Shown here: positions 6,744 to 22,530 of the stretch, in pieces
Layout of the letters: every line of letters starts with the position of its first letter
How positions within the stretch are numbered: position 1 is the stretch's first letter
From: Terriglobia bacterium
GTDB lineage: Bacteria; Acidobacteriota; Terriglobia; JAJPHL01
Assembly (NCBI GenBank): GCA_021325275.1
Contig: JAJPHL010000031.1
Location: 5,096-69,095, forward strand
Reading direction: 5' to 3'
Length of the DNA: 64,000 nucleotides
Notes under the pieces: generated by a model
The model's input: only the letters and a program-made list of their open reading frames with translations
What the model was told of the DNA's origin: nothing
The model's database searches: none
Position numbers and translations under genes: made by a program

Positions 6744-9700
6744 TCAGCGATTGCGAAGATTGATCGCCACGTCGCGTCCACTTTCCAGTTCGTTGGCCGA
6801 CGCCCCGGTGAATCGAAGATCTGCGGGCGACGTCCCTTCCACGCGAGTCAAAAGAATCCGCTGGCCACTGCCAATCACGACCCCGTCTAACCACGCCATC
6901 GCGGCGCTGTTGCCGGTCCCTGTATCGATCAGCGAGGCCGGATGGTTTCCAGGCGTAAGCCGCAGCGGCGATCCCGTGCGACCGGTCAGGGAAAAGGCAA
7001 ATCCACTCAACGATAGCTGATCCCTCGACGACAGATAGACCGCCGTGCCGCCGTCATCGCCGACCAATTCCAGGCTCGCTTCCGGTTGTCCAGGCATCGG
7101 CGCGCCACGGCTTTGCGGCGCCGCCGAAGTACACGCCAATCCGCGTGGCACGCGTGTCGGCCGCAATGGGTCGAGATTGGTGACACGCTTCAACAATGTG
7201 ATCAGGTCCAGCGTATTCAGAACGCCGTCCCCGCCACGGGCCGATGCTGAGTCCACGGGAAATGCATCCATGGCATCGTAGCGATCCGAACAAGTGGCCG
7301 GCACAAAACCCGAAAGCTGGGTTACGGCACGCAGAAGGGCAATCAAGTCGAGAGTGTTCAGCGTGCCGTCGCCGAAGTGGCCGTCACCATCGGTCGTTGC
7401 CGGAAAGACGTCGCCGACCAAGTAAGGCACGCCCACCACGAGATTGGTGTCCAAACCGGCGATGACCGTGACGGTATTTCCTGAAAGCGACGCGCTCGCG
7501 ACGCTGACGTGGGTCGTGTAGAGCTGGCCGAGGAGGGCCCCAGCAGGAACCGTCACCGTCACCGTGCCCAGTTGCACGGTCCCGCTAAACGCGGGATTGA
7601 GTCCGGCGTAGGTCAGCGTAATCATCGCTGCGCCGGCGTTTGATGAAACCGGCGCCGGTTGCGAGACTCTAGGAACGAAAGCAAGCGTACCGCTCAAGGC
7701 GGCCGCGCCCGAGACGGGCGTCAGACTTAGAGTGAACGAGAGAGAGTCCAGGGAAAGACCCACCGGCAGCGCGAGCGTCAGGGGAATCTGCGCGGTATTG
7801 CCCGGCATCGCGCTCGCGGGACTCGCGTACACCAAGCTGGTCGCATTGATCGTGGTGATATCGGTGCTGGAATTGAGCTTTCCACCGCTCGAAACGGTCA
7901 CGGCGTTTGTGACGCTGGCCGGCGCGTTATCCGCCACGCTGACCGTGACCATTATCGCCGGGTAGCTGTTAGTCGGCGCGAGCGCATCGGAACGGAAACA
8001 AGCGAGCGGCCCCAGGGTGCAAGTCCAGCCGGACCCCGCGATGGCCGTTGCAATCAAACCGGACGGCAACGTGTCGGTCACAGTGACCGTTCCAACGCTC
8101 GACGCCGTGCCGCTGTTGGCGACATTGATGCTGTAGGATTGGCCGGCCTGTCCCTGCTGGAAATTTCCGGTATGGCTCGATGCGACGGCGAGACGAGGCG
8201 AAGTGCTCAGTAAAATCGCGAAGTTGGTCGAGTTCGAATTCGTCACCACCAGATCGGGACGCCCGTCGCCGTTGAAATCACCCAACAGTAGGTTGAATAG
8301 CCCAAACTGAGCGGCAAGGCCAGCAACGCCATAGGTAATTGGCGACTGAAACGTTCCATCACCGTTTCCTGGGAGGATGCTCACCGTGTTCGCGTTGTCA
8401 TTGAGCACTGCCAAGTCCGGCTTACCGTCTCCATTGAAATCTGCCACCGCCATGCGGGTGCTGAAAGCCGTTCCTGTTCCCGTGGCGTAGAAGACGCCAG
8501 GCTGGAAGGTTCCGTCACCTTTGCCGAGCAAAACGCTGACGCCGGTGCTATTGGAAATGGCCAAGTCAGGCTTGCCGTCGCCGTTGAAGTCCCCTGTGAC
8601 CGTATAGCCCCCGGGGCTGAGTTGCTGGAATCCGGTGAAGAGCTGGTTCAGGATTGTCGTGTTGCCAGTGTTGAACCACATGCTGTAGTAGTTGGGGCCT
8701 GGGACTAATCCATTACCGTTCTCATAGTCGCCCAGAACCCCAACCGCCAAATCTAGTTTGTCGTTCAACTTGAAATCCGCGACGGCAAACGAGTAGGTGT
8801 CTCCCAACACACCCAAAATGGTGGCGCTTGGAAAGGTCCCATCGCCTCTGCCGGGCAGGAACGCGGCGTCATTGAAACCTCCCACCACCAGATCGACATT
8901 TCCGTCGCCCGTGAAATCACCGGCGGCAATGCAGTTTAGATTCCTGATCGTTTGATAGTTGGCAGCAGCGCCAAATGTTCCGTCGCCATTGCCTAACAGC
9001 ACCGTCACGCTGCCCAGTTCTCCTGCAATGAGGTCGGGAGATTGATTATTAATGGCTAAGTCCACTTTGCCGTCTTTGTTGAGATCGACCGCCAACATTT
9101 GCGCGGGTGCGCCTCCAATCACGGGACCGTTTTTGGTGACGAATGTTCCATCGCCATTGCCCAGCAAAAGAGAGAGGCTGCTGACACCCTGAACGTTGTT
9201 CTGCACCATCGCCAAGTCGGCTTTTCCATCGCCGTTGAAATCGCCCACAGCGCCGGGAGATCCCGTTAAAAGACTCGTCGGTGGTGAAGGCCAGTTCAAG
9301 GGCGCGGCGACAGTCAGGGATAATGCGGCTGAGCTCGACGCCGCGTCGTTAACGTCTCCGGAGTAATTCGCTTGCAAGGACACCACGCTGATCGGCAGAA
9401 CTGGCGTCAACGTCGCTTGACCTCCCGACAGAGTGACTGTGCCAAGCGTTTGCGCACCGGCTGCAAAAGTGATCGTTCCCGTGGCCGTCGACGGCGAGAC
9501 CGTTGCGGTCAACGTAAGGGGCTGGCCAAACCCAATGGGATTCGCGGAGGCGTTCAAGGAAACGCTTGTCGCGATCAATCCCGCTTGGTTGACGGTGAAT
9601 ACCGAGCCCGCGATGGCCAACGTTCCGGTTCGCGCGATGGAAGTCGGATTCGCGGCCACCGAGTAGTTCACCGTACCGTTGCCCGATCCGCTTGCGCCGG

Positions 9701-11816
9701 AGGTGACGCTGACAAAACTGCTGTTGCTGCTCGCCGTCCAGGGGCACCCGGTGCCGGCGGTGACGACAACAGATCCCGTTCCGCTTGGTGCGGAGAACGG
9801 ATGGCTTGTTGGCGCAATCGAGAATGCGCAGCCCGAGTTGGAAACTTGTAGGATGCCGGTCCCTTTGCCGCTCTGGCCATCCGGATTCGTAACCGTTACG
9901 TCTTGGGCTCCCAGAGTTGCGCTGGTGGTCGAAATGCTCAAGATGAGCGTGGTGGGATTGACGTATGTCAGGTTGTTAACCGTGACGCCGCCCGATATGT
10001 GAACGCTGAGACGGTTCGGAAACGCGGGACCAGGATCGTAAAAACCCGTCCCTGTAACAGTGATCTCGGCGGCGGCTTGTCCGGGAGCGACCGAAGGCGT
10101 CGACGATGACGGAACGGGCGGCGGAGCCAAGACTTTCGCAACCTGCAAGCCATAAGCATTAGTTCGGCTGCCATACTGCTGGATCGTCCACATGGTCATG
10201 TCGTCGGAAGGATCCAAACTGGTGGACGACGATACGCCCCACAAACGGGCGCCGAACGAGGACCCGGTATCTCCCGGCGGGTTGTACGCGGTGTTGCTGG
10301 ATGTGTAGAAACTCGGAGCGTCCATTTGGCCGGAGGGATCATTGGAACGCCGCGCCGTGAAGACCGCATCGATGTAATGAGATAGTCCGGCCGTACTCGA
10401 AGCGAGAACGACATTCCCTTGTCCGGATACGACCAGCGATGGAACCCAATAATTCCGAGGTGACGTGGACGTTGGATCAAAAACGGTGCCCGCCTGCACT
10501 AAGGAAAAAGGCTCCGCGGATGACGCCGGAGCGCCTAGTTGATACCAGCGCAGCCCATTGCGGTCGGGCCGCGTGTTGTTGGATGTTCCGGTGAAATCGA
10601 CACCGATCGCGTGAGCCGTCCACAGGTAGCCGTTGCGGATATGGGCCATGGTCAAACGGTCGTCGATGCCGTCCAGTTCTCCAGTCGTTCCGTTAGCGTT
10701 GCCCAAATGAGGCACGGCGACAGGAAAATCGGTTGCGGGCACCGTCAAGGAACTTGGCGTGACGAACGATCCGTTGCTGTTAAAAACCACGGCGTCCGCT
10801 ACGAGCCCGCCGAAGAATTGGGAACTCACGCCAATAAAGTAACCGAGGGTGGCGTTCGGATCGTCGTTGTCGACACCTTGTGGCGTGACCGGTCCGGTCT
10901 GCTGGTAAGTTGTGTTTACGACGATGAGTCCGCCGCTGACGACGGAGTTCCGGTATACGACAAAAAGGCCCGCGCCGCTGTATTCATACTGGGAGCCAGA
11001 CACGCAAAATTGATCAGCGCCGATATAGAGCGCGTTCACGTCGACTCCCAGGGAGGGATTGTCCACGAAACAACTGGCCGCCGACGGCACGTTCGTGCTG
11101 ACATCGTAATAATAAAACGCCCACGTGGTCGCACTGGTGATGCTGGCGCCGTTGCTCACGGCGATGAGAAGGCGATTGGGCACGCCCGTATTAATTGCTG
11201 TGACAAACCAATCGCCGGAGAAGCGGTCGTAGCGTAAATGCGGTTCGACGGCGGTGAATCCGTTGCTGACCGAAGCGAAGAACGAATCCAAGGCCACGTG
11301 GATTTGGCCGTCCGGCTGACCCGTGCCTTTGTCGAACGACTCAATGACGGAGTTGTTGGCCATTAAGAACTGCGTAGGGCCGATTGCACCCGCGGGCTCC
11401 GGTGGAAAAGGTCCTTCGCTGGGGTCGGAATCAAATGTGTCAAAACTCAGCCCGACCGTCTGCGGCGAAGCCGGCACGCCGCGCTCCCTATTCTCCAGCG
11501 GAACCGCCATTGGGTTACGGGAAGTCCGGCTTACATCGTGAGGCGAATCTGGATTCTGGGACAAATGCCGCCGATCCGGCAAGTGATGAACGGGAAGACG
11601 CGCTTTTCGAAATGTGCCCGGATGCGTGCGCTCGACAGCGCGCCTTTCCGCATCTCGCGCCATGATTTGCGCAGTTGTCTCGACGACGGCGGGCGGGCCT
11701 GTCCACTGCGTCGCGATTTTGTGATCTGATAGCGCCGCCTGATAGGCAGGTGTCAGAACGGCGGACACTACCAAAAGTCCGGCTGCCGCATTAAGCTGGC
11801 GTTTCAACGGGCACAT
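6744..11816 (-). CDS. Large secreted multidomain protein (N-terminal propeller-like domain, BACON, Ig-like, FG-GAP/VCBS repeats, DUF11-like, cohesin-like + dockerin-like C-terminus)
   Basis: Signal-like N-terminus; CPWTASSNSSF..SGSGNGTVNYSV BACON; repeated GDFNGDGKPDL; paired GDG.LNTLDLI.LL; start could lie up to 11903. Confidence 0.85.
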   Translation of the reverse strand: MCPLKRQLNAAAGLLVVSAVLTPAYQAALSDHKIATQWTGPPAVVETTAQIMARDAERRAVERTHPGTFRKARLPVHHLPDRRHLSQNPDSPHDVSRTSRNPMAVPLENRERGVPASPQTVGLSFDTFDSDPSEGPFPPEPAGAIGPTQFLMANNSVIESFDKGTGQPDGQIHVALDSFFASVSNGFTAVEPHLRYDRFSGDWFVTAINTGVPNRLLIAVSNGASITSATTWAFYYYDVSTNVPSAASCFVDNPSLGVDVNALYIGADQFCVSGSQYEYSGAGLFVVYRNSVVSGGLIVVNTTYQQTGPVTPQGVDNDDPNATLGYFIGVSSQFFGGLVADAVVFNSNGSFVTPSSLTVPATDFPVAVPHLGNANGTTGELDGIDDRLTMAHIRNGYLWTAHAIGVDFTGTSNNTRPDRNGLRWYQLGAPASSAEPFSLVQAGTVFDPTSTSPRNYWVPSLVVSGQGNVVLASSTAGLSHYIDAVFTARRSNDPSGQMDAPSFYTSSNTAYNPPGDTGSSFGARLWGVSSSTSLDPSDDMTMWTIQQYGSRTNAYGLQVAKVLAPPPVPSSSTPSVAPGQAAAEITVTGTGFYDPGPAFPNRLSVHISGGVTVNNLTYVNPTTLILSISTTSATLGAQDVTVTNPDGQSGKGTGILQVSNSGCAFSIAPTSHPFSAPSGTGSVVVTAGTGCPWTASSNSSFVSVTSGASGSGNGTVNYSVAANPTSIARTGTLAIAGSVFTVNQAGLIATSVSLNASANPIGFGQPLTLTATVSPSTATGTITFAAGAQTLGTVTLSGGQATLTPVLPISVVSLQANYSGDVNDAASSSAALSLTVAAPLNWPSPPTSLLTGSPGAVGDFNGDGKADLAMVQNNVQGVSSLSLLLGNGDGTFVTKNGPVIGGAPAQMLAVDLNKDGKVDLAINNQSPDLIAGELGSVTVLLGNGDGTFGAAANYQTIRNLNCIAAGDFTGDGNVDLVVGGFNDAAFLPGRGDGTFPSATILGVLGDTYSFAVADFKLNDKLDLAVGVLGDYENGNGLVPGPNYYSMWFNTGNTTILNQLFTGFQQLSPGGYTVTGDFNGDGKPDLAISNSTGVSVLLGKGDGTFQPGVFYATGTGTAFSTRMAVADFNGDGKPDLAVLNDNANTVSILPGNGDGTFQSPITYGVAGLAAQFGLFNLLLGDFNGDGRPDLVVTNSNSTNFAILLSTSPRLAVASSHTGNFQQGQAGQSYSINVANSGTASSVGTVTVTDTLPSGLIATAIAGSGWTCTLGPLACFRSDALAPTNSYPAIMVTVSVADNAPASVTNAVTVSSGGKLNSSTDITTINATSLVYASPASAMPGNTAQIPLTLALPVGLSLDSLSFTLSLTPVSGAAALSGTLAFVPRVSQPAPVSSNAGAAMITLTYAGLNPAFSGTVQLGTVTVTVPAGALLGQLYTTHVSVASASLSGNTVTVIAGLDTNLVVGVPYLVGDVFPATTDGDGHFGDGTLNTLDLIALLRAVTQLSGFVPATCSDRYDAMDAFPVDSASARGGDGVLNTLDLITLLKRVTNLDPLRPTRVPRGLACTSAAPQSRGAPMPGQPEASLELVGDDGGTAVYLSSRDQLSLSGFAFSLTGRTGSPLRLTPGNHPASLIDTGTGNSAAMAWLDGVVIGSGQRILLTRVEGTSPADLRFTGASANELESGRDVAINLRNR

Positions 11817-12026
11817 CTGATCGCGGCAGTTTATCACAGGAGAGTTTTGCGGAACTCGCATCGGGAACCATCCGGCTGCCTGGTTTCGCGGACCGCTTTC
11901 CATGCCGCAACAAACTCACGACAGGACTCAAATCGGGAGCAAGAAAATAGTTCCAGTACCGACGATCCAAACCACTTAGCGCGGCGACGTGCTAGACTTT
12001 CCATTTGCTGTTTTGAATCGAGCGTC

Positions 12027-14492
12027 ATGCCGTTAGCTTCCCAGCGTTCCGCGCCTTCCCTTCGCAGCCTTTTGCCGCTGGCGCGATACGCGCCAGATTT
12101 AAAACTGCAAACGCTGGCTCTGGGCGTCGATAATCTGCGCATCGATGTGCGGATGAGTCCGCGGCTGGTCACGGCTCTCTCGCGATATCAGTTCGGACTC
12201 TTCATCAAGTACAGTAACGCACGCCGTTTCCTCGACGGTTTGCCAGACGTGCCAACCGCCGCCGATCGGAATCAACTGAAGCAACTGATTTCCGAAGTGC
12301 TGCTCGGCGCGCTGAATCAAGCGCGCGCGCGAAAGCTGCCGGAACTCGATTTGCTCGCGAATCTTGCGGTGCTGAAGTATGTGGCGTATGAAGCGCGTCA
12401 GAATTACGACTTCATTTTGCTGCAAGGCAAGAATAAAGCGCGGCAATTTGAGGGTCCGCGCCACACCACCAGCCCCCGGGCGGCGGAATTTCAGCAGACC
12501 ATCAACGATTTTCAGACGGCGCGCAAGCAGACCCTACGCCTGGTCACGCAAGACGTCCAGCGCATCGTGAATGAAGTGCAGGCCGACAGCGTGCGCAAGA
12601 CGCGGCAATCGCTCTCCGGCATCGAAGCGGCGAATTTGTTTCCGTATTTCTCCAATCCCCTGCTCTACGCCGAAAACGGCCGCGACGATTACACGCACTT
12701 GGAAAAATACGTGATGATCGGGAACTACTCGAACGATCCCGACCGTTTCGATTTTGTCGACGAATGGCTGCGCTCGTTTCTGCGCGACGTGGATCAAGAA
12801 GGTCCCGAGGCCAAGGAATTGGCGGCGGCGGTGGCGCGCGAAGAAGCGCTCGGCACGCGCATGGAGGAATTCCGTAAGACGTATATCCCCACCGGCAAAT
12901 CGCGCGGCGTGCTCGGCAAGTGGTTCAGCACGAGCTCCGATCCACCGGTGGTCCCGATGCCGGCGGAGAAATTAGCCAAAGAAGTGGCGACGCAAGCGCG
13001 GCAATTGATCGACGCCAATGCGCAGGTGCAGCAACTCGCAGCGCATTACGAACAAGTGATCGCCGAGTGGATGAGCGTGCCGGAAAACGCCGAGGACCTT
13101 CTGGAAATCGCGCGGAACGAGCGCCAATTGGAAGACGCGCGCCGCCGGTCGGATCACGGCAAAGTCGCGCAGTTGGAGCAACGCATCGAGGCGCAGAAAT
13201 TCCTGGTGGACGAGCTGTACCTGCGCACGGAACGGGCCGGCTTGCTGCCGTTTCTCTTCGCGACGTATGAAGTCGCGCGCATCTATGCGGATTTTTGTCC
13301 GCCGATCAATCCGCAAATCCTCAAGCAGGCGCTGTTAAAACCGGACGAGCGCGAAAAGGTCAACACCATGATCCGGCACTATCGCATGCCGGACAGCCGC
13401 ATCAACGTGCTGAAAGACGCGGCGGAACGCGTGCGCGCGGCTTCCCCGCTCGATCTACGGAAGGCGATGGTGCGTTTCGCCGGCGACTACTTCCGGCATC
13501 ACCGCGACGCAAGGAATCAGGCGGCCGTGCAAGCGCTCTTCGACCGCTTGCACATGCCGATGGAAGATCGCGCCGAGGAGTTGTCGCGCATCAACGGCAC
13601 GCTCTACGAGTTCCTGATCTCGAGCGAAGAGCAATCGGTGGAGCGCCGCGTCACGGGTCACGTGATTTTGAAGGCCGATATCCGCGACTCCACGCGCCTG
13701 ACCACCGAATTGCTGGCGCGCGGCATGAATCCCGCCAGTTATTTCAGCCTGAACTTTTACGATCCGCTGAACAAACTCCTGCCGCGTTACGGCGCGGAAA
13801 AAGTATTTATCGAAGGCGACGCGGTGATTCTGGCGTTGTTCGAGCGCGAAGGCGGGCGCAGTCACACCGTGGGCCTGGCGTGCGGATTGGCGCGCGAAAT
13901 GGTGGAAATCGTGAAACTGTACAACGCCAAGAGCGAAGCGGGCGGCTTGCCGAAGCTCGAAATCGGCATTGGCATTACTTTCCGCGACACCGCGCCGCTC
14001 TATTTGCTCGACGGCGAGAATCGCATCATGATTTCCGACGCGCTGAATCTCTCGGATCGGCTCTCGGGATGCCACAAGCTGGCGCGGAAATCGCTGCCGG
14101 TGAATAAGAGCGCGTTCAACGTTTTCATTTTCCAAACCATCAGCGAGGAAACGGCGGCCGGCGCGATGGATGAATTCCTGGTGCGCTACAACGTGCAAGG
14201 CATTTGCTTGAGTGAAGACGCGTTCGAGAAACTGCGCACCGAGATTCGCTTTTCCACCGTCGAAACGGACTTGCCCGCCTTGTGGGGCACCGAGCGCGTC
14301 ACGCTGCACTCGGGCGCGGTGCCGCTGTCGACGGAAGTGTATCAGCGCCTGGTGGTCCGCGAAGCGCTGGTCAGTTGGGTGGACCCGCACACCTTTGCGC
14401 TGAAGGAATGCACGTCGCGCCGGTACTTTGAATTGTGCACGAACAAAGTGGTGTACGACGAGACGGACAAGCTCGTCTCGGGCGGAGCATGA
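12027..14492 (+). CDS. Large soluble protein with C-terminal class III nucleotidyl cyclase-like domain
   Basis: ILKADIRDST, FIEGDAVIL, IGIGI, SDALNLSDRLSG motifs; ~550-aa helical N-terminal region without TMs. Confidence 0.75.
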   Translation: MPLASQRSAPSLRSLLPLARYAPDLKLQTLALGVDNLRIDVRMSPRLVTALSRYQFGLFIKYSNARRFLDGLPDVPTAADRNQLKQLISEVLLGALNQARARKLPELDLLANLAVLKYVAYEARQNYDFILLQGKNKARQFEGPRHTTSPRAAEFQQTINDFQTARKQTLRLVTQDVQRIVNEVQADSVRKTRQSLSGIEAANLFPYFSNPLLYAENGRDDYTHLEKYVMIGNYSNDPDRFDFVDEWLRSFLRDVDQEGPEAKELAAAVAREEALGTRMEEFRKTYIPTGKSRGVLGKWFSTSSDPPVVPMPAEKLAKEVATQARQLIDANAQVQQLAAHYEQVIAEWMSVPENAEDLLEIARNERQLEDARRRSDHGKVAQLEQRIEAQKFLVDELYLRTERAGLLPFLFATYEVARIYADFCPPINPQILKQALLKPDEREKVNTMIRHYRMPDSRINVLKDAAERVRAASPLDLRKAMVRFAGDYFRHHRDARNQAAVQALFDRLHMPMEDRAEELSRINGTLYEFLISSEEQSVERRVTGHVILKADIRDSTRLTTELLARGMNPASYFSLNFYDPLNKLLPRYGAEKVFIEGDAVILALFEREGGRSHTVGLACGLAREMVEIVKLYNAKSEAGGLPKLEIGIGITFRDTAPLYLLDGENRIMISDALNLSDRLSGCHKLARKSLPVNKSAFNVFIFQTISEETAAGAMDEFLVRYNVQGICLSEDAFEKLRTEIRFSTVETDLPALWGTERVTLHSGAVPLSTEVYQRLVVREALVSWVDPHTFALKECTSRRYFELCTNKVVYDETDKLVSGGA

Positions 14493-14504: not shown

Positions 14505-14712
14505 TTTCAACGCAGAGACGCAGAGGGCGCAGAGAAAACCTGATTGACTCATCTGATGAAGATCAATGAGATAACCAATGCGATTGTCGGGGCCGGAATT
14601 GAAGTGCATAGAGCACAACGTCCCGATTCTCACGGAAGGCGGCATTCGCAGAAAAGTTCTCGGCCTGAACGAATAAGGTTTTCTCTGCGCCCTCTGCGTC
14701 TCTGCGTTGAAA
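14505..14712. mobile_element. Miniature element bounded by 37-bp perfect inverted repeats
   Basis: TTTCAACGCAGAGACGCAGAGGGCGCAGAGAAAACCT at 14505-14541 and its reverse complement at 14676-14712. Confidence 0.65.
14556..14676 (+). pseudogene. Internally deleted GxxExxY-family gene remnant
   Basis: MKINEITNAIVGAGIEVHRA (14556-14615) joined out of frame to NVPILTEGGIRRKVLGLNE* (14617-14676), matching typical GxxExxY N- and C-termini. Confidence 0.7.
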
Positions 14713-15046: not shown

Positions 15047-15781
15047 CTACTTCAACGTCTCGGCGAGCTTCTGGAAAGCGCGTTCGGCCTGCGGCTGGTC
15101 GAACACAGGACTATCGGGCACGGTCCAACTGTGCAGCGCGCCGGTGTACGTTTCGCTCTCATAGCGCCCGCCCCACGCCGCGAGCGCCGCTTCGAATTTC
15201 GCGATCGCTCCCGCCGGCATGCTCTTGTCCTGATCCGCGTGACCGAAGTACAGGCGGGCTTTCACGCGCGGAAGCACCAAGTGCGGACTCGCCGGCGAAT
15301 CCGTGCACAATCCGCCGCCGTGGAACGACGCCGCGGCGCAAACCGCGTCGGGACGCGCCGCCGCCGCGCGCAACGCCATCGCGCCGGTCAAGCAATATCC
15401 CACCACGCGCACCGGCCCCGCCTCGACACTCGCGTGCGACGCCAGAAAATCGACGTACGCCGCGCCGTCGCGATCCATCGCCGCCGCGTCGAGCGGCGCC
15501 ATCAGTTCCTTCATGCGTTTCAAGGAACGCTCGTCCATCTGTCCGGGCTTGCGTGGAAAATCGAAAACCGGCAAACGGCTGGTTCGATAGAAAACGTTCG
15601 GCAGCAGCACGGTGTATCCCAACGCCGCGACCCTTGCCGCCATCTGGCGATTCGCTTCGCGGACTCCTCCAATGTCGGTGAAATGAATCACGCCGGGCAA
15701 GCGCGCGGAATCTTCGGGACGGAACAGCACCGCTTCCGTCACGCCGTCGGCGGCGCGGATTTCGAGTGTTTGTTCGACCAT
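15047..15781 (-). CDS. Dienelactone hydrolase family protein
   Basis: DIGG.R, GYCLTG nucleophile, SFHGG, HADQD, GALHSW. Confidence 0.9.
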   Translation of the reverse strand: MVEQTLEIRAADGVTEAVLFRPEDSARLPGVIHFTDIGGVREANRQMAARVAALGYTVLLPNVFYRTSRLPVFDFPRKPGQMDERSLKRMKELMAPLDAAAMDRDGAAYVDFLASHASVEAGPVRVVGYCLTGAMALRAAAARPDAVCAAASFHGGGLCTDSPASPHLVLPRVKARLYFGHADQDKSMPAGAIAKFEAALAAWGGRYESETYTGALHSWTVPDSPVFDQPQAERAFQKLAETLK

Positions 15782-15785
15782 GTTT

Positions 15786-15819
15786 GGCGTCCCCGAACCG
15801 GGGACTAGTTTTTCGCGCC
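15786..15819 (-). promoter_or_regulatory. Putative bacterial SECIS element
   Basis: On the minus strand right after UGA: GGCG..GTCCCC-GGTTC-GGGGAC-GCC hairpin with G/U in the apical loop, no U-tract. Confidence 0.7.
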
Positions 15820-16305
15820 TCAACCAGCCTTCACCTTCGGCACGTCCTCGCCGGCGTGAAAGAGTGAGAAGCCCTTCTTGCCGGTTAGCGTTTCGAGCTT
15901 GGCCATCATCCTCAGCAAATCTTCGCGCGCGAAGCCCACGCAACTCTCCAGGATCTCGCCGTTCTGTGCGATCAGGAAAATCGACGGCACGTGGGTCAAT
16001 CCGTAGGCGTTCGAGGTGGGGTAGTCGTCGGTGTCTTCGAGCAGCAGCGGAAAGTGCACACCGAAGTGTTTCGCGAAATCGCGCGTCGAGCGCTCATCGT
16101 CTTGCGACACGCCCCAGACGCAGCCGAAATGCTTGGCGGCGCGATCGAGAAACGGCAGCGTGAACTGGCAAGTGGGACAACTCACCTTGAAGAAGGCCAC
16201 CAGTTGCGGCCCCGCCGAAAGCGCGTCGCGCAGGGAGTACGTTTTTCCGTCGATGGCGGGCCAAGTGAATTCCGGAGCGTGAGTACCAGTTTCAATGGCA
16301 GGCAT
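15805..16305 (-). CDS. AhpC/TSA-TlpA-like redoxin, probable selenoprotein (C-terminal KAG-U-GAKN)
   Basis: Thioredoxin fold APEF..FFKVSCPTC..VSQD..VPSIFLI; in-frame TGA at 15822-15820 followed by GGC GCG AAA AAC TAG and a SECIS-like hairpin. Confidence 0.8.
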
Positions 16306-16651
16306 ACATTCAGATTATCACTGCTGCGCGCCGCGGCGCAGCCCGCTGCGTCCGCCCGAAAATCATCGTCTGGCCGAAAGAACCATCCATCAGTCGAAAG
16401 AACACGCGGCGAGCCGAAAGAATTGACCGAAAGGCCAGCGCATCGCGGCATGAACAATGGAAGCGCCGGGGCTGAGGCGCGCGAACAATCTCCCGCGCTG
16501 AGAGTGCTACAACGGGCGCGAGCTCCATCTTTTGAAGATCGGAAACAATCAACCAGCCAAACTAAAGGGTTTTCACTGAGGCAATCTCGAGACGAATTTC
16601 GCGGGAAAGTTCCCAAATTGGACCGCTTTAGTGATTCTCTTCTCATTTGCT

Positions 16652-16667
16652 TGTGACTCCTGTCACA
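16652..16667. promoter_or_regulatory. CRP/FNR-family binding site TGTGA-N6-TCACA
   Basis: TGTGACTCCTGTCACA, a perfect CRP consensus core ~50 bp upstream of the decaheme gene. Confidence 0.65.
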
Positions 16668-16716
16668 GACGATGTGACGATATATGGAAATAATGACGAA
16701 CCAGGAGGACGAGATC

Positions 16717-17649
16717 ATGTCGCAAGGCGTGGCGAAAGGTTGCTTGTTGGCGTTGTTGGCGGCGACCGTTTTCGCGGCCGCGCCGGCAGCACAGAAACAG
16801 GCGGCTCCCGCTGCATCGCAGGCCAAACCGGCGCCCGCGAGTGAATACGTCGGATCGGATACGTGCAAGACGTGTCACGAAGGGCCCGCCAAGAGTTTCG
16901 AGCATGGGCCGCATTGGAAGACCGAGCTGAGCAAACACCAGGGACCCGAGTGGCAAGGCTGCGAAGCGTGCCATGGACCCGGCAAAGCGCACGCCGAATC
17001 GGCCGATGCCGCCAAGATCATTCGCTTCCCCAAATTGAAGCGCGAGGAATCGTCGAAGCGCTGCTTGCAATGTCACGAATTCGGCGAAGAGCACGCCAAT
17101 TTTCTGCGCTCGCAGCATCTCAAGAATAACGTCGGCTGCATCGACTGCCATTCCATCCACAGCGCCAAGGTGGAAAGCCATTTGATGAAAGCCTCGCAGC
17201 CGCAACTTTGTTACGGTTGCCATCAGGAAGTGAAGCCGGACTTTTCCAAGCCCTTCCACCATCGCGTGAATGAAGGATTGGTGAAATGCTCCGATTGCCA
17301 CAATCCGCACGGCGGATTCCTGACGCATCAGTTGCGCGCCACGGCCGCGCAGGATCAAGTTTGTTTCACTTGTCACACCGACAAGGCCGGTCCTTTCGCA
17401 TGGGAACACGGCCCGGTGAAGACGGAAGGTTGCGTGGCGTGTCACATGCCGCATGGTTCGTCGAATCCGCGTTTGTTGAAACGCAGCAACGTGAATTTGC
17501 TCTGTCTCGAATGTCACACGTTCACGGTGGATTCGGCGGCTCCGGCCGCGCCTTCGTTCCACAATCAAGCGCAAAAGTATCAAGCATGCACGCTGTGTCA
17601 CACCGCGACTCATGGGTCGAACACCGATGAATTCTTCTTCAAACCGTAA
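16717..17649 (+). CDS. Decaheme c-type cytochrome, DmsE/MtrA/MtoA/PioA family
   Basis: Signal peptide; ten CxxCH motifs (CKTCH, CEACH, CLQCH, CIDCH, CYGCH, CSDCH, CFTCH, CVACH, CLECH, CTLCH); GPFAWEH..PHGS; RBS AGGAGG. Confidence 0.93.
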   Translation: MSQGVAKGCLLALLAATVFAAAPAAQKQAAPAASQAKPAPASEYVGSDTCKTCHEGPAKSFEHGPHWKTELSKHQGPEWQGCEACHGPGKAHAESADAAKIIRFPKLKREESSKRCLQCHEFGEEHANFLRSQHLKNNVGCIDCHSIHSAKVESHLMKASQPQLCYGCHQEVKPDFSKPFHHRVNEGLVKCSDCHNPHGGFLTHQLRATAAQDQVCFTCHTDKAGPFAWEHGPVKTEGCVACHMPHGSSNPRLLKRSNVNLLCLECHTFTVDSAAPAAPSFHNQAQKYQACTLCHTATHGSNTDEFFFKP

Positions 17650-19990
17650 CGCATGTTTGTATGTCGGGTTGTCTGTGGCGCTCCTTGCGGCGGCCGCGGC
17701 AGCGCAGCCGCCGGCGCCGCTGGCCCCGCCGTTGGAATCAGACAAGCCCACCATGGCGGGCAGCTATGAAATCCGCCAGACCATCGAGTTCGGCGGACAC
17801 GCCACGCATTTCGGCGGAAACTCCGGCATGTGGGACACCTTCGTGAATCTCGGCACGGGTCCGCGCCTGCTCGATTACACGCTGGACCTGCATTCGCCCA
17901 ATCACAACGGATTGCTCTTCGACGATTTGACGTTCACCAATTTCGGCTATGGCGGCGATCCTAACAACGTGAGCCGGCTGCGCATCTTGAAAAGCAAGTA
18001 TTACAACTTCACCGGCACATTTCGCCGCGACGTCAACGTGTTCGATTACGATTTGTTCGCCAATCCGCTGAACCCATCGAACTCCAACCCCAACTTGCCG
18101 GTGCTGCAATCGCCGCACGAAATGTTCCTCGTCCGGCGCATGACCGACCTGAACCTGACGCTGCTTCCGGTGAGCAAAGTGCGTTTCCGCCTCGGATGGT
18201 CGCGCGTGACGAATCAAGGAACCTCGTTCACCACGTATCACGAAGGCACCGAGACGCTGCTCGACGAGCCTACGTTGAATATCACCGATACCTATCGCCT
18301 CGGTGTCACCTTCAAGGTTCGTCACCGCACCAGTTTGCAGTTCGATGAAATGTTCACGCACTTCAAGGGCGACACCTCGGCGACGCTGGCGTCGAGCGCC
18401 ACGATGGCGGGGTTTGGTTTCCCGTCGTTTCAATTGGCCGGCAATATTCCCGTAAATCTTGGACTGCCGTTCAACACGGGAGCCACCACGCCGTGCGCCG
18501 CGCCGGTGTTGGCCACGGGATTCGCGAATCCCACGTGCAACGGCTACCTTAGCTTTGTGCAATCCGGACGCACACGCAATTCGTTTCCCACCGAGCAAGC
18601 CAGTTTTCAGAGCAGCGAAAGTCCGCAGTGGGATTTTTCGGGCAAGCTCAGCTACACCGACGCCACCGCCAATCTGCCTTCCTACGATCAATTCTTCAAT
18701 GGACTCGTTTCGCGCTCGGCCGTTCGCACCGAGGGAATCACCGGCGCGTCGACGGCGAAGCACATTGCCCTGAACGGCGATTTCGCGGCGACCTATCACG
18801 CCACCGAGAAGTTGCGCATCGTCGACACGCTGCGCTACTCCGCGTTCCGCAATCCGGGATCGTGGAGCCTGGTGACCGCCGATACGTTCGGCGCGTCGCT
18901 GCTGGTGAATCCCAATACGTTTTCCACGACAACGTGTCCGTCGCCGTTTACCGGCGCCGGCTGCCCGCAGCATACCTCGAGCTCCAGCGCCGATCTCACG
19001 GTCGATAATCGCACCGACTTCATGGCGCAGCAGCAAACCATCAACACGTTCGAGTTGGAATACGATTTCACGCCGAAGCTCATGGCGCACCTGGGCCATC
19101 GCTACGAGCACCGCGAGATCACCGACAATGTGGTCGACTATTCGGTGCAAACGTTCCTGCCCACGCTGCCGAATCGCGGCGCGTGCGCGGGCATCGCGCT
19201 CAGTTCCACGGGAACGTGCACCACAACGGTGCCGAGCATCGACAACGGCAACTTCTTCGTGCCGATCAACTCGAATTCGGCCATCGGCGGCTTTACCTAT
19301 CGGCCCAACGAGAAATTCCGTTTCACGGCCGACGCGGAAATCTTCTACGCCGACAACGTATACACACGCATCAGCCCGCGCCATTTGCAGGACTATCGGT
19401 GGCGCGCGGTCTACAAGCCGCTTCCCTGGGTGAACCTGGGGTCGACCATCCGCATCCAGGAGAATCGCAACAATACGGCGGCCATCGGCAACTTGCAGCA
19501 CAATCGCAATTACGCGTTCAACGCCGTGATGGCTCCGCCTTCGGCCAACTGGGGCTTCGATTTTTCGTACAGCTACCAGGACATTTTCTCGCAAACCAAC
19601 ATTTGTTTTGTCTCCACGCCCGCGCCGCTGAATTCGCTCAGTTGCGGATCGCCGTACCTGCAGGGACTGTCGTATTACACCGAACTCGCGCACAACGGCT
19701 CCACTTCGTTCTTCTTCAAGCCCGCGTCGAACGTCACGGCGGGCGTCGGCTACACGATCACCAGCACGGCGGGAAACACCTTGATCCTGAATCCGATTGC
19801 GCCGACCGGGCCGCTAAGCTATAACTACCACCTGCCGATGGTCTCTCTAGCCGCTCAGCTTTCCAAGCACGTGAGCTACAAATCGAGTTGGAGTTTTTAC
19901 GATTACCATGAGAAATCGGCTCCGGGACCGACGCTGCCGCGCGGATTTCACGGCGGCGTGATCACCATGTCGCTGCGGTACTCGCTGTAA
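17627..19990 (+). CDS. MtrB/PioB-like outer-membrane beta-barrel associated with the decaheme cytochrome
   Basis: Signal peptide, aromatic-rich amphipathic beta strands, C-terminal SLRYSL; overlaps the decaheme gene end. Confidence 0.8.
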   Translation: MNSSSNRNACLYVGLSVALLAAAAAAQPPAPLAPPLESDKPTMAGSYEIRQTIEFGGHATHFGGNSGMWDTFVNLGTGPRLLDYTLDLHSPNHNGLLFDDLTFTNFGYGGDPNNVSRLRILKSKYYNFTGTFRRDVNVFDYDLFANPLNPSNSNPNLPVLQSPHEMFLVRRMTDLNLTLLPVSKVRFRLGWSRVTNQGTSFTTYHEGTETLLDEPTLNITDTYRLGVTFKVRHRTSLQFDEMFTHFKGDTSATLASSATMAGFGFPSFQLAGNIPVNLGLPFNTGATTPCAAPVLATGFANPTCNGYLSFVQSGRTRNSFPTEQASFQSSESPQWDFSGKLSYTDATANLPSYDQFFNGLVSRSAVRTEGITGASTAKHIALNGDFAATYHATEKLRIVDTLRYSAFRNPGSWSLVTADTFGASLLVNPNTFSTTTCPSPFTGAGCPQHTSSSSADLTVDNRTDFMAQQQTINTFELEYDFTPKLMAHLGHRYEHREITDNVVDYSVQTFLPTLPNRGACAGIALSSTGTCTTTVPSIDNGNFFVPINSNSAIGGFTYRPNEKFRFTADAEIFYADNVYTRISPRHLQDYRWRAVYKPLPWVNLGSTIRIQENRNNTAAIGNLQHNRNYAFNAVMAPPSANWGFDFSYSYQDIFSQTNICFVSTPAPLNSLSCGSPYLQGLSYYTELAHNGSTSFFFKPASNVTAGVGYTITSTAGNTLILNPIAPTGPLSYNYHLPMVSLAAQLSKHVSYKSSWSFYDYHEKSAPGPTLPRGFHGGVITMSLRYSL

Positions 19991-20016
19991 AACTGCCATT
20001 GACGAGAGGAGACCGA

Positions 20017-20322
20017 ATGAAAGCTTCGCTGAAACTGCTGTTCCTGATCCTGATGGTAGCCGCTGTGGGCCTGTGGGCCGATGACGCCGCGACGATCTAT
20101 AAGTCAAAGTGCCAGGCGTGCCACGGCGCCGATGGCAAAGGCTCCGCCGTCGGCCAGAAGATAGGCGTAATCTCTTTTCAAGATCCGGCGGTTGTGAAAA
20201 TGTCGGACGCCGAACTGTTCGACACCACCAAAAAGGGCAAGAACAAAATGCCCGCGTACGACGGCAAGTTGTCCGACGCCGACATCAAGGCGGTGGTGAA
20301 GTTTTGCCGCGATTTGAAGTAA
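20017..20322 (+). CDS. Periplasmic monoheme class I cytochrome c
   Basis: Signal peptide, CQACH, KMPAY distal Met; RBS AGGAG. Confidence 0.9.
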   Translation: MKASLKLLFLILMVAAVGLWADDAATIYKSKCQACHGADGKGSAVGQKIGVISFQDPAVVKMSDAELFDTTKKGKNKMPAYDGKLSDADIKAVVKFCRDLK

Positions 20323-20341
20323 TCGTTTTTCAGGAGAACGC

Positions 20342-20941
20342 ATGGCACTGATTCTCACCGGCGTTGCGCTGGTCCTGGTATGCGTGGTGGCGGCCGCGCC
20401 GGGCGTCACGGCGAATCCCAGCGGCAAAGTGCTGGCCTTCGTCGCGCTGTTCCTGCTTCCGGCCACCGCCGGCTTTTTCGGCGTGACGCAGCATTACGAG
20501 CATTCCAAGGACACGTCGTTTTGTCTCTCGTGCCACGTAATGGAACCCTACGGCCGCTCTTTGTATCGCGACGACAAGAACTTCATCCCGGCTGCGCATT
20601 TCCAAAACGCGCGCATTCCGCGCGACCAGGCGTGCTATACGTGCCACACCAATTACACGATCTTCGGCACGGTGCACGACAAGCTCCGCGGGCTGAAGCA
20701 CGCTTACAAGTACTACATCGCAACGCCCGCGAATCCCATCAAGCTCTACGAGCCCTTCAACAATCGCGAGTGCCTGCATTGTCACGCGGGCGCGCGCAGC
20801 TTCGAGGAAGGCCCGGTGCATTCGGCCATGATGGACGATATCAAGGGGAACAAACTTTCCTGCGTGTCGTCGGGATGCCACGACCAAATCCATGACGTGG
20901 CGCATTTGAGCAACGCAAAAATGTGGAGCGCGCCCAGATGA
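20342..20941 (+). CDS. NapC/NirT (CymA-like) membrane-anchored tetraheme cytochrome c
   Basis: N-terminal TMs; FCLSCHVM, CYTCH, CLHCH and atypical CVSSGCH. Confidence 0.85.
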   Translation: MALILTGVALVLVCVVAAAPGVTANPSGKVLAFVALFLLPATAGFFGVTQHYEHSKDTSFCLSCHVMEPYGRSLYRDDKNFIPAAHFQNARIPRDQACYTCHTNYTIFGTVHDKLRGLKHAYKYYIATPANPIKLYEPFNNRECLHCHAGARSFEEGPVHSAMMDDIKGNKLSCVSSGCHDQIHDVAHLSNAKMWSAPR

Positions 20942-21132
20942 GCGAACCTAGCGTCCCAACCATCTATCGCAAGCTACGCCTCTCCGCCCTGCTGATCGCC
21001 GCGGGACTTGTCGTGGAAGCCATAACCCTGGAACTCGCGCATCCACTCGCGTTCATGGGATTCCTCGGTCTCGCGGGACCGCTGATCGCAGCGGGCGTGG
21101 TGACGTTCCTGTGGGCGCTGGTCTCGCCTTAG
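20938..21132 (+). CDS. Small two-TM membrane protein, translationally coupled to NapC/NirT
   Basis: ATGA overlap; two hydrophobic helices. Confidence 0.7.
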   Translation: MSEPSVPTIYRKLRLSALLIAAGLVVEAITLELAHPLAFMGFLGLAGPLIAAGVVTFLWALVSP

Positions 21133-21944
21133 TTCTCCGACGCCTTTTCCACGTGTTCAATCACCAATACTTCGACCGCCTGCTTCGACGATTCCAGGCG
21201 CAGGCCGAGTTGTTGCTGTAGCGCGGTGAAGATCGAAGGAGCAGCATCCGGCGCGCCTGTTGAATCGCCGGGCGCAAATTCCAAATGCAAGTCGAATTTT
21301 TCCGTGAAGCCCGTTTTGTCGACCACCGTGCGACGGACATCGCTGGAGATCACCTCGATCAGTTTGGGCATCGCGATGCTAAAAGCGTCGACCCGATCCG
21401 TTCGATCGGGAGCAGCGGTAACCATCGTTCGCCTGAGCCCCCCGCAAATGTTGGCCGGCCGACTCGGCGTAGGCGGACTAGCCGGATCCAGCGTGATGCA
21501 ACTTCCTTCCTTGGCGCTCTGAATCTTGAATCCGCCTTTGGCGGCCACCAGGTCATAGACGGGAAATTCCTTCGACTCCCGGCGTAATTTGAGTTTGAAT
21601 CGCTCCGCCAGCAACGCCTGAAGCATTGGGCGCATCTCGGCCGACGTAGCGTCGCCGTCGGCTTTCGCGATCACATCGTAGCGATCGGCGTTCACCCAAG
21701 CCGGCGCGCCCTGCACCTGAAAGTCCTTCACGTTGTAAGCCGCCTGAATCAGCAGGCTGAGCGGCGCATTCTTCATAGTGAATCGGCCGTTGCGGATAAC
21801 CGGCCTCAACAGGTTCATTTCGACGTCGTCGGGAGGCGGATGGACACCGGGAATCTGCTTGACCGACGCGACTTCGAATCTCGCGGCGGGTGCTTGAGCG
21901 AAGGCCAGCGTCGCCCACATAGCGATGGTCCAAATGTTTTTCAT
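21129..21944 (-). CDS. TIGR03435 (DUF3738) family protein
   Basis: FEVASVK..LIQAAYNV..MLQALLAERFKL..VVDKTG..SIFTALQQQLGLRLE..VIEHVEKASEN. Confidence 0.9.
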   Translation of the reverse strand: MKNIWTIAMWATLAFAQAPAARFEVASVKQIPGVHPPPDDVEMNLLRPVIRNGRFTMKNAPLSLLIQAAYNVKDFQVQGAPAWVNADRYDVIAKADGDATSAEMRPMLQALLAERFKLKLRRESKEFPVYDLVAAKGGFKIQSAKEGSCITLDPASPPTPSRPANICGGLRRTMVTAAPDRTDRVDAFSIAMPKLIEVISSDVRRTVVDKTGFTEKFDLHLEFAPGDSTGAPDAAPSIFTALQQQLGLRLESSKQAVEVLVIEHVEKASEN

Positions 21945-21949
21945 AGGCG

Positions 21950-22291
21950 TCACTTCGCTAAGGGCGACGGGGAAAACATTTTCCGCGCGAAGGCGCCCGC
22001 GTATCCGGCGACGAGCGCGATCGCCATCACGACCACCGCGACAATCGGCAATCCTTTTACGGCGCCTTTTCCGAAGAGAATCTCGGCGCCGGGAATGCTC
22101 GCGGCCACCAAGAGCGGCCACAGCCACGCCCTCGCCGGATCGAGACAACCGAGCGTAAACGCCGTGACGCAGAGCAGGCCCACCTCCACGCCCGTATCGT
22201 CGGTGTGCAATTCGTAGTGACCGAAGAACGCCATGGCGCCCGCGCAAAGCACGCAAGCCACCGCCATTGCCAGCCTGGAAGAAGAAGTCAT
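21950..22291 (-). CDS. Hypothetical small membrane protein
   Basis: About four hydrophobic helices; directly upstream of TIGR03435 gene. Confidence 0.65.
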   Translation of the reverse strand: MTSSSRLAMAVACVLCAGAMAFFGHYELHTDDTGVEVGLLCVTAFTLGCLDPARAWLWPLLVAASIPGAEILFGKGAVKGLPIVAVVVMAIALVAGYAGAFARKMFSPSPLAK

Positions 22292-22530
22292 GCACGCAGG
22301 GTAGCGCAATCACATTGCGTTGTAAAGTACTTTTTGTTGGCTGCGGCTGGGGAAACCCACTACGGGATTTTTCCCGGCAAAATCATGGTTCTACCCGATA
22401 CCAGTCGGCGAAGCCCACTCGCTAGAATGATTTCTGTAACCCACTCCACCAGGGGTGGCCGGCATGCCTCGCTACGCCTCCAATAACCCGGTCACCCCTT
22501 CAAAGGCAGTTCTTAAAAGCAGGGCTCGGC

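Follow-up and report, generated by a model that had tools for sequence, protein, structure and literature searches.

The stretch of DNA analysed here (the window) comprises 64,000 nucleotides of contig JAJPHL010000031.1 from a Terriglobia bacterium (NCBI GenBank assembly GCA_021325275.1), and positions 16717-21132 of it carry five genes, head to tail on the + strand, that form a porin-cytochrome operon. The operon is real and conserved and, judging from its sequence, probably functional. We consider it very likely that it encodes a conduit of the MtrAB/MtoAB/PioAB kind that lacks MtrC and is wired to the quinone pool; that such a conduit has outward electron flow as its main role is, in our estimate, an even chance. 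The five genes, as read from the open reading frame (ORF) map, are as follows (aa, amino acids):

16684-17649, + strand: ORF 1, decaheme cytochrome (321-aa ORF; likely start ATG 16717, giving 310 aa)
17612-19990, + strand: ORF 2, outer-membrane barrel (792-aa ORF; likely start ATG 17627, giving 787 aa)
19999-20322, + strand: ORF 3, monoheme cytochrome c (107-aa ORF; likely start ATG 20017, giving 101 aa)
20342-20941, + strand: ORF 4, tetraheme cytochrome of the NapC/NirT/NrfH type (199 aa)
20923-21132, + strand: ORF 5, small membrane protein (69-aa ORF; likely start ATG 20938, giving 64 aa)

An earlier interpretation made without database searches (the sequence-only reading) had proposed an operon for a decaheme, a barrel, a monoheme, a NapC/NirT-type protein and a small membrane protein, and the ORF map and motifs showed all five to be present. 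The gene arrangement is not due to chance. The listed ORFs are spaced by -38, 8, 19 and -19 bases. Purine runs resembling ribosome-binding sites favour later starts for four of the five, including AGGAGG before ATG 16717 of the decaheme gene, a start already chosen in the sequence-only reading, and GAGGAG before ATG 20017 of the monoheme gene; with the likely starts, the barrel gene overlaps the end of the decaheme gene by 23 bases and the small gene overlaps the tetraheme stop by 4. Related loci were counted among the best 80 of at least 598 species-representative genome stretches that encode a relative of the barrel. The flanks of the operon were conserved beside the cluster in none of these 80 loci, and the five genes therefore constitute a self-contained unit. 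Both the families of the proteins and the linkage of their genes support the view, also put forward in the sequence-only reading, that this porin-cytochrome operon stands by itself and includes a module for the quinone pool.

The barrel is represented in the database by a 787-aa gene call that is 100% identical to the protein of the window. It matched no family in Pfam or NCBIfam and no PDB sequence, either by phmmer or with the family profile. A search of the host genome with PF11854 (MtrB_PioB) returned no match, although the model scored above its cut-off in 52 of the 201 Acidobacteriota genomes sampled (at E ≤ 0.001 there were 58 matches, one of them from the unpublished genome G188). Sub-threshold matches to PF11854 occurred in only 4 of 39 members of the barrel family. 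When 39 family members were compared by hhalign with 8 genuine PF11854 barrels taken from other Acidobacteriota, the match had a probability of 98.2% (E 5.2e-14) over 630 columns spanning both proteins. An AlphaFold2 model built from a 39-row alignment (mean pLDDT 88.4, pTM 0.77) contained about 26 long strands when we counted them in the DSSP output; on one side these are joined by turns of 2-10 residues, on the opposite side by loops that reach 57 residues. The top PDB match of the model in Foldseek was MtrB (6r2q_B; E 2.7e-13, TM 0.57/0.69), followed later by 22-strand TonB-dependent transporters with a TM of 0.46 or lower, and VIA-align gave Z 26.9 against the same chain, with a root-mean-square deviation of 3.7 Å and 579 of 649 residues aligned. 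The ESM Atlas feature matches, used as a lead only, placed a PF11854 cluster at rank 15 with a score of 0.98. The profile-profile match, the predicted fold, the structural matches and the linkage to a decaheme gene together tie the barrel to MtrB, and by alignment and model it is a divergent, remote member of the MtrB/PioB superfamily with a predicted MtrB-like fold.

Eight Cys residues are invariant among the close relatives of the barrel. Judged by strand parity in the model, the four pairs that they presumably form all lie in the long loops, and these loops would be extracellular. The idea that long, Cys-stapled loops replace MtrC was weakened by two loci, L128 and L129, in which barrels of ~660-680 aa without the insertions are likewise part of MtrC-less five-gene clusters.

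The decaheme cytochrome has a signal-like hydrophobic segment at its N-terminus and ten CXXCH motifs within residues 61-306 of the 321-aa ORF. It matched TIGR03508 (the DmsE family) with 261 bits (cut-off, 192.2) over profile positions 1-257 of 258, and it was the sole gene in the genome to exceed this cut-off. Two other multiheme ORFs, of 398 aa on contig C59 and 716 aa on contig C30, were weak matches to the same model. Residues 56-314 of the decaheme aligned with residues 62-325 of chain A of PDB entry 6r2q, the decaheme of the Mtr complex (E 1.3e-37). A decaheme gene was located directly upstream of the barrel gene in 80 of 80 named loci and in all 12 inspected loci from related genomes. 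In an IQ-TREE phylogeny of 36 decahemes, a quick run from which five loci without an intact adjacent decaheme-barrel pair had been left out beforehand, a single branch with SH-aLRT 100 parted the 8 decahemes encoded beside PF11854 barrels from the 28 encoded beside acidobacterial barrel types. This supports co-segregation of decaheme and barrel types and suggests that the two have evolved together.

These results also bear on a different explanation, according to which there is no conduit across the outer membrane, the barrel being just a porin or transporter of the usual kind while the cytochromes form a purely periplasmic chain. That the barrel belongs to no curated family would suit this explanation, as would the tendency of large barrels to match one another in fold searches, where many TonB-dependent transporters reached Z 14-16 in VIA-align. 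However, the next entry after MtrB scored only Z 16.2, so that MtrB was the best fold match by a wide margin; the profile match to PF11854 barrels is full-length; the DSSP listing showed no separate N-terminal plug-like domain before strand 1; and neither the invariable linkage to a decaheme gene nor the co-segregation of the two types on the tree is what an ordinary transporter would lead one to expect. We regard this explanation as highly improbable.

The monoheme cytochrome has a signal peptide, one CXXCH motif (CQACH) and a K-M-P motif. It matched PF13442 with 56 bits and also PF00034, and its best PDB matches were Kuenenia c-552-type cytochromes (E ~1e-9); no molecule named MtoD was among its 39 PDB matches at E ≤ 0.01. 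Because the Met of the K-M-P motif was retained in 63 of 63 aligned rows, the heme is likely to have His/Met ligation, and the protein can be classed, from its sequence, as a presumably periplasmic class I cytochrome c that is not MtoD-like. Class I monohemes with His/Met ligation are usually high-potential carriers that feed oxidases, and metal reducers use low-potential multihemes.

The fourth gene had been described in the sequence-only reading as a CymA-like quinol oxidoreductase. Its assignment to PF03264 (NapC/NirT) holds (35.5 bits; cut-off, 24.1), but its family scores and motifs point to an NrfH-like variant rather than a CymA orthologue. Against TIGR03153 (NrfH) it scored 41.7 bits and did not reach the equivalog cut-off of 134.2, and it was also far below the NapC/NirT and TorC equivalog cut-offs; when the family profile was run against PDB, NrfH (2j7a_C) was the sole match (E 2.8e-4). 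The protein contains three CXXCH motifs and one CX4CH motif (CVSSGCH), and 37 of 40 homologues share this combination of three CXXCH and a CX4CH. Its first heme site is CXXCHXM, the Met of which (M67) is invariant; we take the Met of this motif to be a ligand of heme 1 in NrfH. At the N-terminus, two hydrophobic segments are separated by a loop rich in R and K, which by the positive-inside rule suggests a hairpin with its N-terminus outside. No nrfA-like gene is present in the operon. The tetraheme is presumed, from its family, to be an inner-membrane (mena)quinol dehydrogenase or quinone reductase. A second NapC/NirT gene occurs elsewhere in the host genome (G000:C66:61031-61582; PF03264, 38 bits); its product is 32% identical to the operon tetraheme, and the match spans one in-frame TGA.

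The start codon of the small gene, ATG 20938, overlaps the tetraheme stop as ATGA, so that by its sequence the small gene is translationally coupled to the NrfH-like gene. Its 64-aa product has two hydrophobic segments, predicted as helices, and matched no Pfam family at E ≤ 0.1. Of the 40 loci with an NrfH-like gene, 37 had a small gene after it, two of the three remaining loci being close to a contig end, and the small gene was also in this position in all six of the other NrfH-like contexts that were fetched. When the tetraheme was predicted in complex with four hemes and the small protein, the score was 0.46 in all three runs, the best of 3 controls scoring 0.00; the pLDDT of the partner was at least 78, and at least 94% of the contacts agreed between runs. 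Of 157 solved complexes, 116 reached the mark applied to such predictions, as did 2 of 215 mismatched pairs, and at scores of 0.60 or under the passing cases comprised 18 of the 157 solved complexes together with both mismatches. The small protein is thus presumed to be a subunit of the quinol module, a view to which the complex prediction adds weak support. A His in its loop, considered as a possible heme ligand, was rejected, since this position varies among H, S, R, A, N and T in the alignment.

Relatives of the barrel are numerous. At least 1975 were found at E ≤ 0.001 among 8000 scored candidates, and 1185 clusters at 50% identity were found among 1.84 billion representatives; the closest barrel beyond the window was 61% identical. 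The best 80 loci were all from metagenome-assembled genomes (MAGs), nearly all of them labelled as Terriglobia or Acidobacteriota lineages, among them Ca. Angelobacter, Acidiferrales, Terriglobales and Sulfotelmatobacter. Of the 80 loci, 63 had the monoheme gene downstream of the barrel, 40 had the NrfH-like gene there and 37 the small gene, and the full five-gene layout recurred in 37-40 of the 80. In a sample of 301 genomes of the class (which, in this count and the next, includes one unpublished genome, G268), the barrel was detected at E ≤ 1e-50 in 60, concentrated in three families (31/50, 21/51 and 6/47 genomes); the window's own family had it in 0 of 3 further genomes and the sister family in 0 of 7. 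The NrfH-like protein was detected at E ≤ 1e-25 in 65 of the 301 genomes, including families without the barrel type of the window. The genes for both proteins are neighbours in several genomes of the sample that consist of few contigs, among them G370, G298 and G455. Two of the six other NrfH-like contexts consisted of a decaheme, a barrel of ~660-680 aa, a monoheme, the NrfH-like protein and the small protein; three combined an octaheme PF13447 protein with the NrfH-like and small proteins; and one held other c-type cytochromes. Since the NrfH-like and small genes are found together in several other gene contexts, the pair behaves, as far as gene neighbourhoods tell, as a movable quinone-pool module. 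The PF13447 octahemes, HAO/ONR-like by family, are encoded at L125:7651-9078, L126:7516-8811 and L130:2034-3314 in other Terriglobia, and the NrfH-like proteins beside them carry four canonical CXXCH motifs instead of three and a CX4CH.

The composition of these loci is relevant to the proposal that the five genes are an incomplete pathway and that the conduit works for a specific partner whose gene lies elsewhere, for instance a reductase or cytochrome on the cell surface or outside the cell, as DmsEF serves DmsAB or as in sister clusters with 9- to 21-heme cytochromes. Among the 40 loci without an NrfH-like gene, 16 had cytochromes of 8 or more hemes beside the decaheme-barrel pair (9-21 hemes in those seen), 7 had a membrane protein of ~480 aa with five CXXCH motifs, 7 had less than 1.5 kb of sequence downstream and 16 had nothing further. 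The first of these groups favours a partner, and the multiheme ORFs on C59 and C30 could be candidates. On the other hand, none of the 40 loci that hold the NrfH-like gene, the type to which the window belongs, had a further cytochrome of four or more hemes within ~5 kb. The sequence-only reading had noted the absence of MtrC/OmcA and of a DMSO reductase; the first was confirmed genome-wide with TIGR03507, which found no OmcA/MtrC gene in the host genome (6.86 Mb in 75 contigs, 97.6% complete), the same search detecting OmcA/MtrC at 495-550 bits in same-genus and same-family genomes. As to the second, the neighbouring genes that were scanned included no DMSO reductase-like gene and no other reductase gene. 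A dedicated partner encoded elsewhere therefore seems unlikely to us.

Returning to the conduit wired to the quinone pool, its electron path can be outlined from the sequences as follows. The NrfH-like tetraheme, with its two-helix anchor, and its 64-aa two-helix partner would exchange electrons with the membrane quinone pool; the soluble His/Met monoheme would ferry them over the periplasm; and the decaheme, lodged inside the ~26-strand barrel, would conduct them through the outer membrane to its final heme, which would be exposed at the surface. Such a chain is probably reversible. Three points weigh against the conduit as read here: the barrel scored only 14 bits against PF11854 (E 0.019) and did not reach the gathering threshold of 23; the CX4CH motif is a putative fourth heme site, proposed from its conservation; and no RNA run was listed among the runs that hold DNA nearly identical to the locus. 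These runs, identified with window positions 16600-21200, comprised one soil-metagenome run, from which the sequence may itself derive, and four mine-metagenome runs of a second study, the latter with word shares of 0.96, 0.73, 0.31 and 0.31.

With outward flow, quinol would be oxidised, and Fe(III), Mn(IV) or humic matter would serve as the electron sink once O2 is gone. This direction is favoured because the host, a heterotroph, lacks RuBisCO and because the quinol module feeds octaheme enzymes elsewhere. RuBisCO was not found in the 97.6%-complete genome, and reverse electron flow for autotrophy therefore seems unnecessary. NrfH-like/octaheme pairings are known as quinol-oxidising, and by this analogy the location of the NrfH-like and small pair beside PF13447 octahemes in three of the six other contexts would fit quinol oxidation better than electron uptake, to which the sequence-only reading had linked the lack of MtrC. 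In sister clusters, moreover, the quinol module is replaced by the ~480-aa membrane cytochromes with five CXXCH motifs, and those tested from related genomes have an NrfH-type domain.

Several observations argue against outward flow, and the same observations recommend the opposite direction. In that alternative, Fe(II), reduced humics or minerals would be oxidised at the cell surface, and the decaheme would hand the electrons to the His/Met cytochrome c and this in turn to heme-copper oxidases. A mixotroph could gain additional energy in this way or detoxify Fe(II), and the NrfH-like module would form a branch off this route to the quinone pool, as in the proposal for MtoAB-MtoD-CymA. The conservation of the His/Met monoheme in all 63 rows agrees with an inward route, and so does the presence of three heme-copper oxidase loci in the host genome, which make a route to O2 available. 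The genome has no MtrC/OmcA, the parts list is that of the mto cluster, and Mto and Pio, the systems without MtrC that have been characterised, are described as Fe(II) oxidisers (PMC8805035, PMC4412085). The mine-metagenome runs add a weak hint from habitat. Against an inward route, the lack of RuBisCO leaves no obvious need for a quinone reductase working by reverse flow, the NrfH-like and small module also adjoins PF13447 octahemes, and the monoheme is not MtoD-like. On balance we rate inward flow as rather unlikely, and prefer the conduit with outward flow at the even chance given above.

The nearest relatives of the host differ at this locus. A genome of the same genus (G001) and a genome of the same family lack the five-gene cluster and carry instead an OmcA/MtrC gene, a decaheme, a shorter barrel and a tetraheme. 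Both flanks of the operon are present in G001 at 74-78% DNA identity, on two different contigs, and window positions 16337-21964 have no match there; with the flanks on two contigs, a clean insertion site in G001 was not shown. The patchy distribution of the cluster, its absence from the nearest relatives and a decaheme 82% identical to one from a Ca. Angelobacter MAG suggest that the host genome gained the operon horizontally. In G001, L024:4528-7749 is a single 1073-aa ORF in which an MtrB-like barrel is continued by a C-terminal part that bears four CXXCH motifs and gave four cytochrome c domain matches; the same-family genome (L025) encodes a 668-aa barrel and a tetraheme of 378 aa in two distinct genes. 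The L024 ORF may be a barrel-cytochrome fusion or an artefact of assembly or reading frame.

The operon is bordered in the window by the following features:

15047-15943, - strand: dienelactone hydrolase gene (PF01738), upstream flank
15820-16305, - strand: thioredoxin-like gene, upstream flank of the operon
16306-16716, no strand assigned: upstream intergenic region between the divergent thioredoxin-like gene and the operon
21129-22313, - strand: TIGR03435-family gene, downstream flank

The promoter of the operon presumably lies in the intergenic region at 16306-16716. A scan of 16100-21500 for the sigma-70 consensus gave 0 sites against 1.4 expected and thus located no promoter, and a scan for terminator-like sites gave 6 against 7.5 expected; both scans were uninformative. 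Further upstream, a 41-nucleotide inverted-repeat pair (14505-14545 and 14672-14712; 98% complementary, 126 nucleotides between the arms) sits between an 881-aa gene and the dienelactone hydrolase gene. Sequences resembling its arms occur at many sites and in both orientations in G001, and the pair looks like an element of the miniature inverted-repeat transposable or repetitive extragenic palindromic type. The dienelactone hydrolase gene is absent at the syntenic site in G001, where its neighbours are 22 bases apart. The 881-aa ORF (11847-14492, + strand) matched no Pfam family and has 74% DNA identity in the same-genus genome. A 1719-aa ORF (6744-11903, - strand) contains FG-GAP repeats and a bacterial Ig-like domain and is probably a large surface protein.

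Many soils and peats are dominated by Acidobacteriota, whose role in iron and humic redox has been argued mostly from gene surveys. The operon offers a complete and compact candidate pathway that is common in soil Terriglobia. Standard family models miss both its barrel and its small subunit, and screens relying on PF11854 would overlook this barrel. The five-gene unit is small enough for transfer into Shewanella or E. coli, which would provide a direct test of direction and substrate. As a tentative hypothesis, one that we think somewhat more apt to fail than to hold, Terriglobia may own a lineage-specific, modular kit for extracellular electron transfer (EET) that annotation has left undetected, consisting of an MtrB-superfamily barrel clade outside Pfam that is always accompanied by a co-evolving decaheme and can function with no MtrC-type surface cytochrome, together with a two-subunit quinol module (an NrfH-like tetraheme with CX4CH site and two helices, and a 64-aa hairpin protein) serving either conduits or HAO/ONR-like octahemes. 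If this is true, many dominant soil acidobacteria that are deemed aerobes could dump electrons on Fe(III) and humics, or take them up, by means of five genes, and the host genome would have acquired such a five-gene pathway horizontally.

Among known systems, the mto cluster of Sideroxydans lithotrophicus ES-1, composed of MtoA, MtoB, MtoD and CymA (PMC4412085; PMC13741234), is the one to which the sequence-only reading had likened the operon. The likeness stands for the parts list: both have a decaheme, a barrel, a small monoheme and a NapC/NirT-type tetraheme in one cluster, and no MtrC. It does not extend to the monoheme, which probably has His/Met ligation here, whereas MtoD is bis-His (PMC4412085). 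The tetraheme also differs in its CX4CH fourth site, CXXCHXM first site, extra N-terminal helix and small partner, the barrel lies outside PF11854, and the host is a RuBisCO-less heterotroph of the Terriglobia type, not a lithoautotroph. The operon is Mto-like by its parts as they are described.

Shewanella MtrCAB (6R2Q) is similar in that the decaheme of the operon aligns with the decaheme chain of the complex and MtrB is the best structural match of the barrel, the model of which has ~26 strands, the count reported for PioB/MtoB/MtrB (PMC10654088). Unlike Shewanella, however, the host has no MtrC/OmcA. The barrel is 12-13% identical to MtrB in structural alignments and has 787 aa with long Cys-bearing loops, compared with 649 residues in the MtrB chain, and the periplasmic carrier is a monoheme instead of the tetraheme CctA or FccA (PMC8805035).

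The operon contains one two-gene part, the NrfH-like tetraheme and its small partner, for which NrfH of Desulfovibrio vulgaris (2J7A) is the sole solved relative. The two tetrahemes have the CXXCHXM first heme motif in common; the operon tetraheme differs in the absence of an adjacent nrfA, in its second N-terminal helix, in its CX4CH fourth site and in its small membrane partner.

Within the phylum, 'Group 5' MtrCAB clusters of Acidobacteriia/Bryobacterales have been described by Baker et al. in 2022 (PMC8805035), and the MtrC-bearing clusters of the same-genus and same-family genomes fit this group as it is described. These Group 5-like clusters comprise an OmcA/MtrC decaheme (495-550 bits), a decaheme, a barrel of ~670 aa and a tetraheme, and their barrels are clear relatives of the operon barrel (hhalign E 1e-86). 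The operon differs in having neither MtrC nor a downstream tetraheme, in a barrel that is ~110 aa longer and in its inner-membrane quinol module, a component that Group 5 clusters are reported, in the text of that paper, to lack. EET1 and EET2 are divergent porin-multiheme clusters of peat Terriglobales and Bryobacterales that are reported to be transcribed in peat (2026 preprint, 10.64898/2026.05.27.727921); the survey that defined them began from extracellular multiheme cytochromes, of which the operon has none.

The sequence-only reading had further held that the mechanism is largely unresolved in this phylum. This is partly dated, since MtrA homologues from acidobacteria were pointed out in 2013 (PMC3669403), MtrCAB clusters were reported in 2022 and the Mtr-like peat clusters in 2026; 27 PioA/MtoA matches in Acidobacteriia were counted in 2023 (PMC10654088), and a 2018 survey counted no CymA homologues in Acidobacteria (PMC6295460). 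The literature searched gave, in its running text, no account of an MtrC-less five-gene layout, of a barrel clade outside PF11854 or of a CX4CH NrfH-like protein with a small partner. As a whole, this comparison indicates that Mtr-like clusters in Acidobacteriota were already known, and that what is new, relative to those texts, is the five-gene layout, the barrel clade outside PF11854 and the CX4CH NrfH-like protein with its partner.

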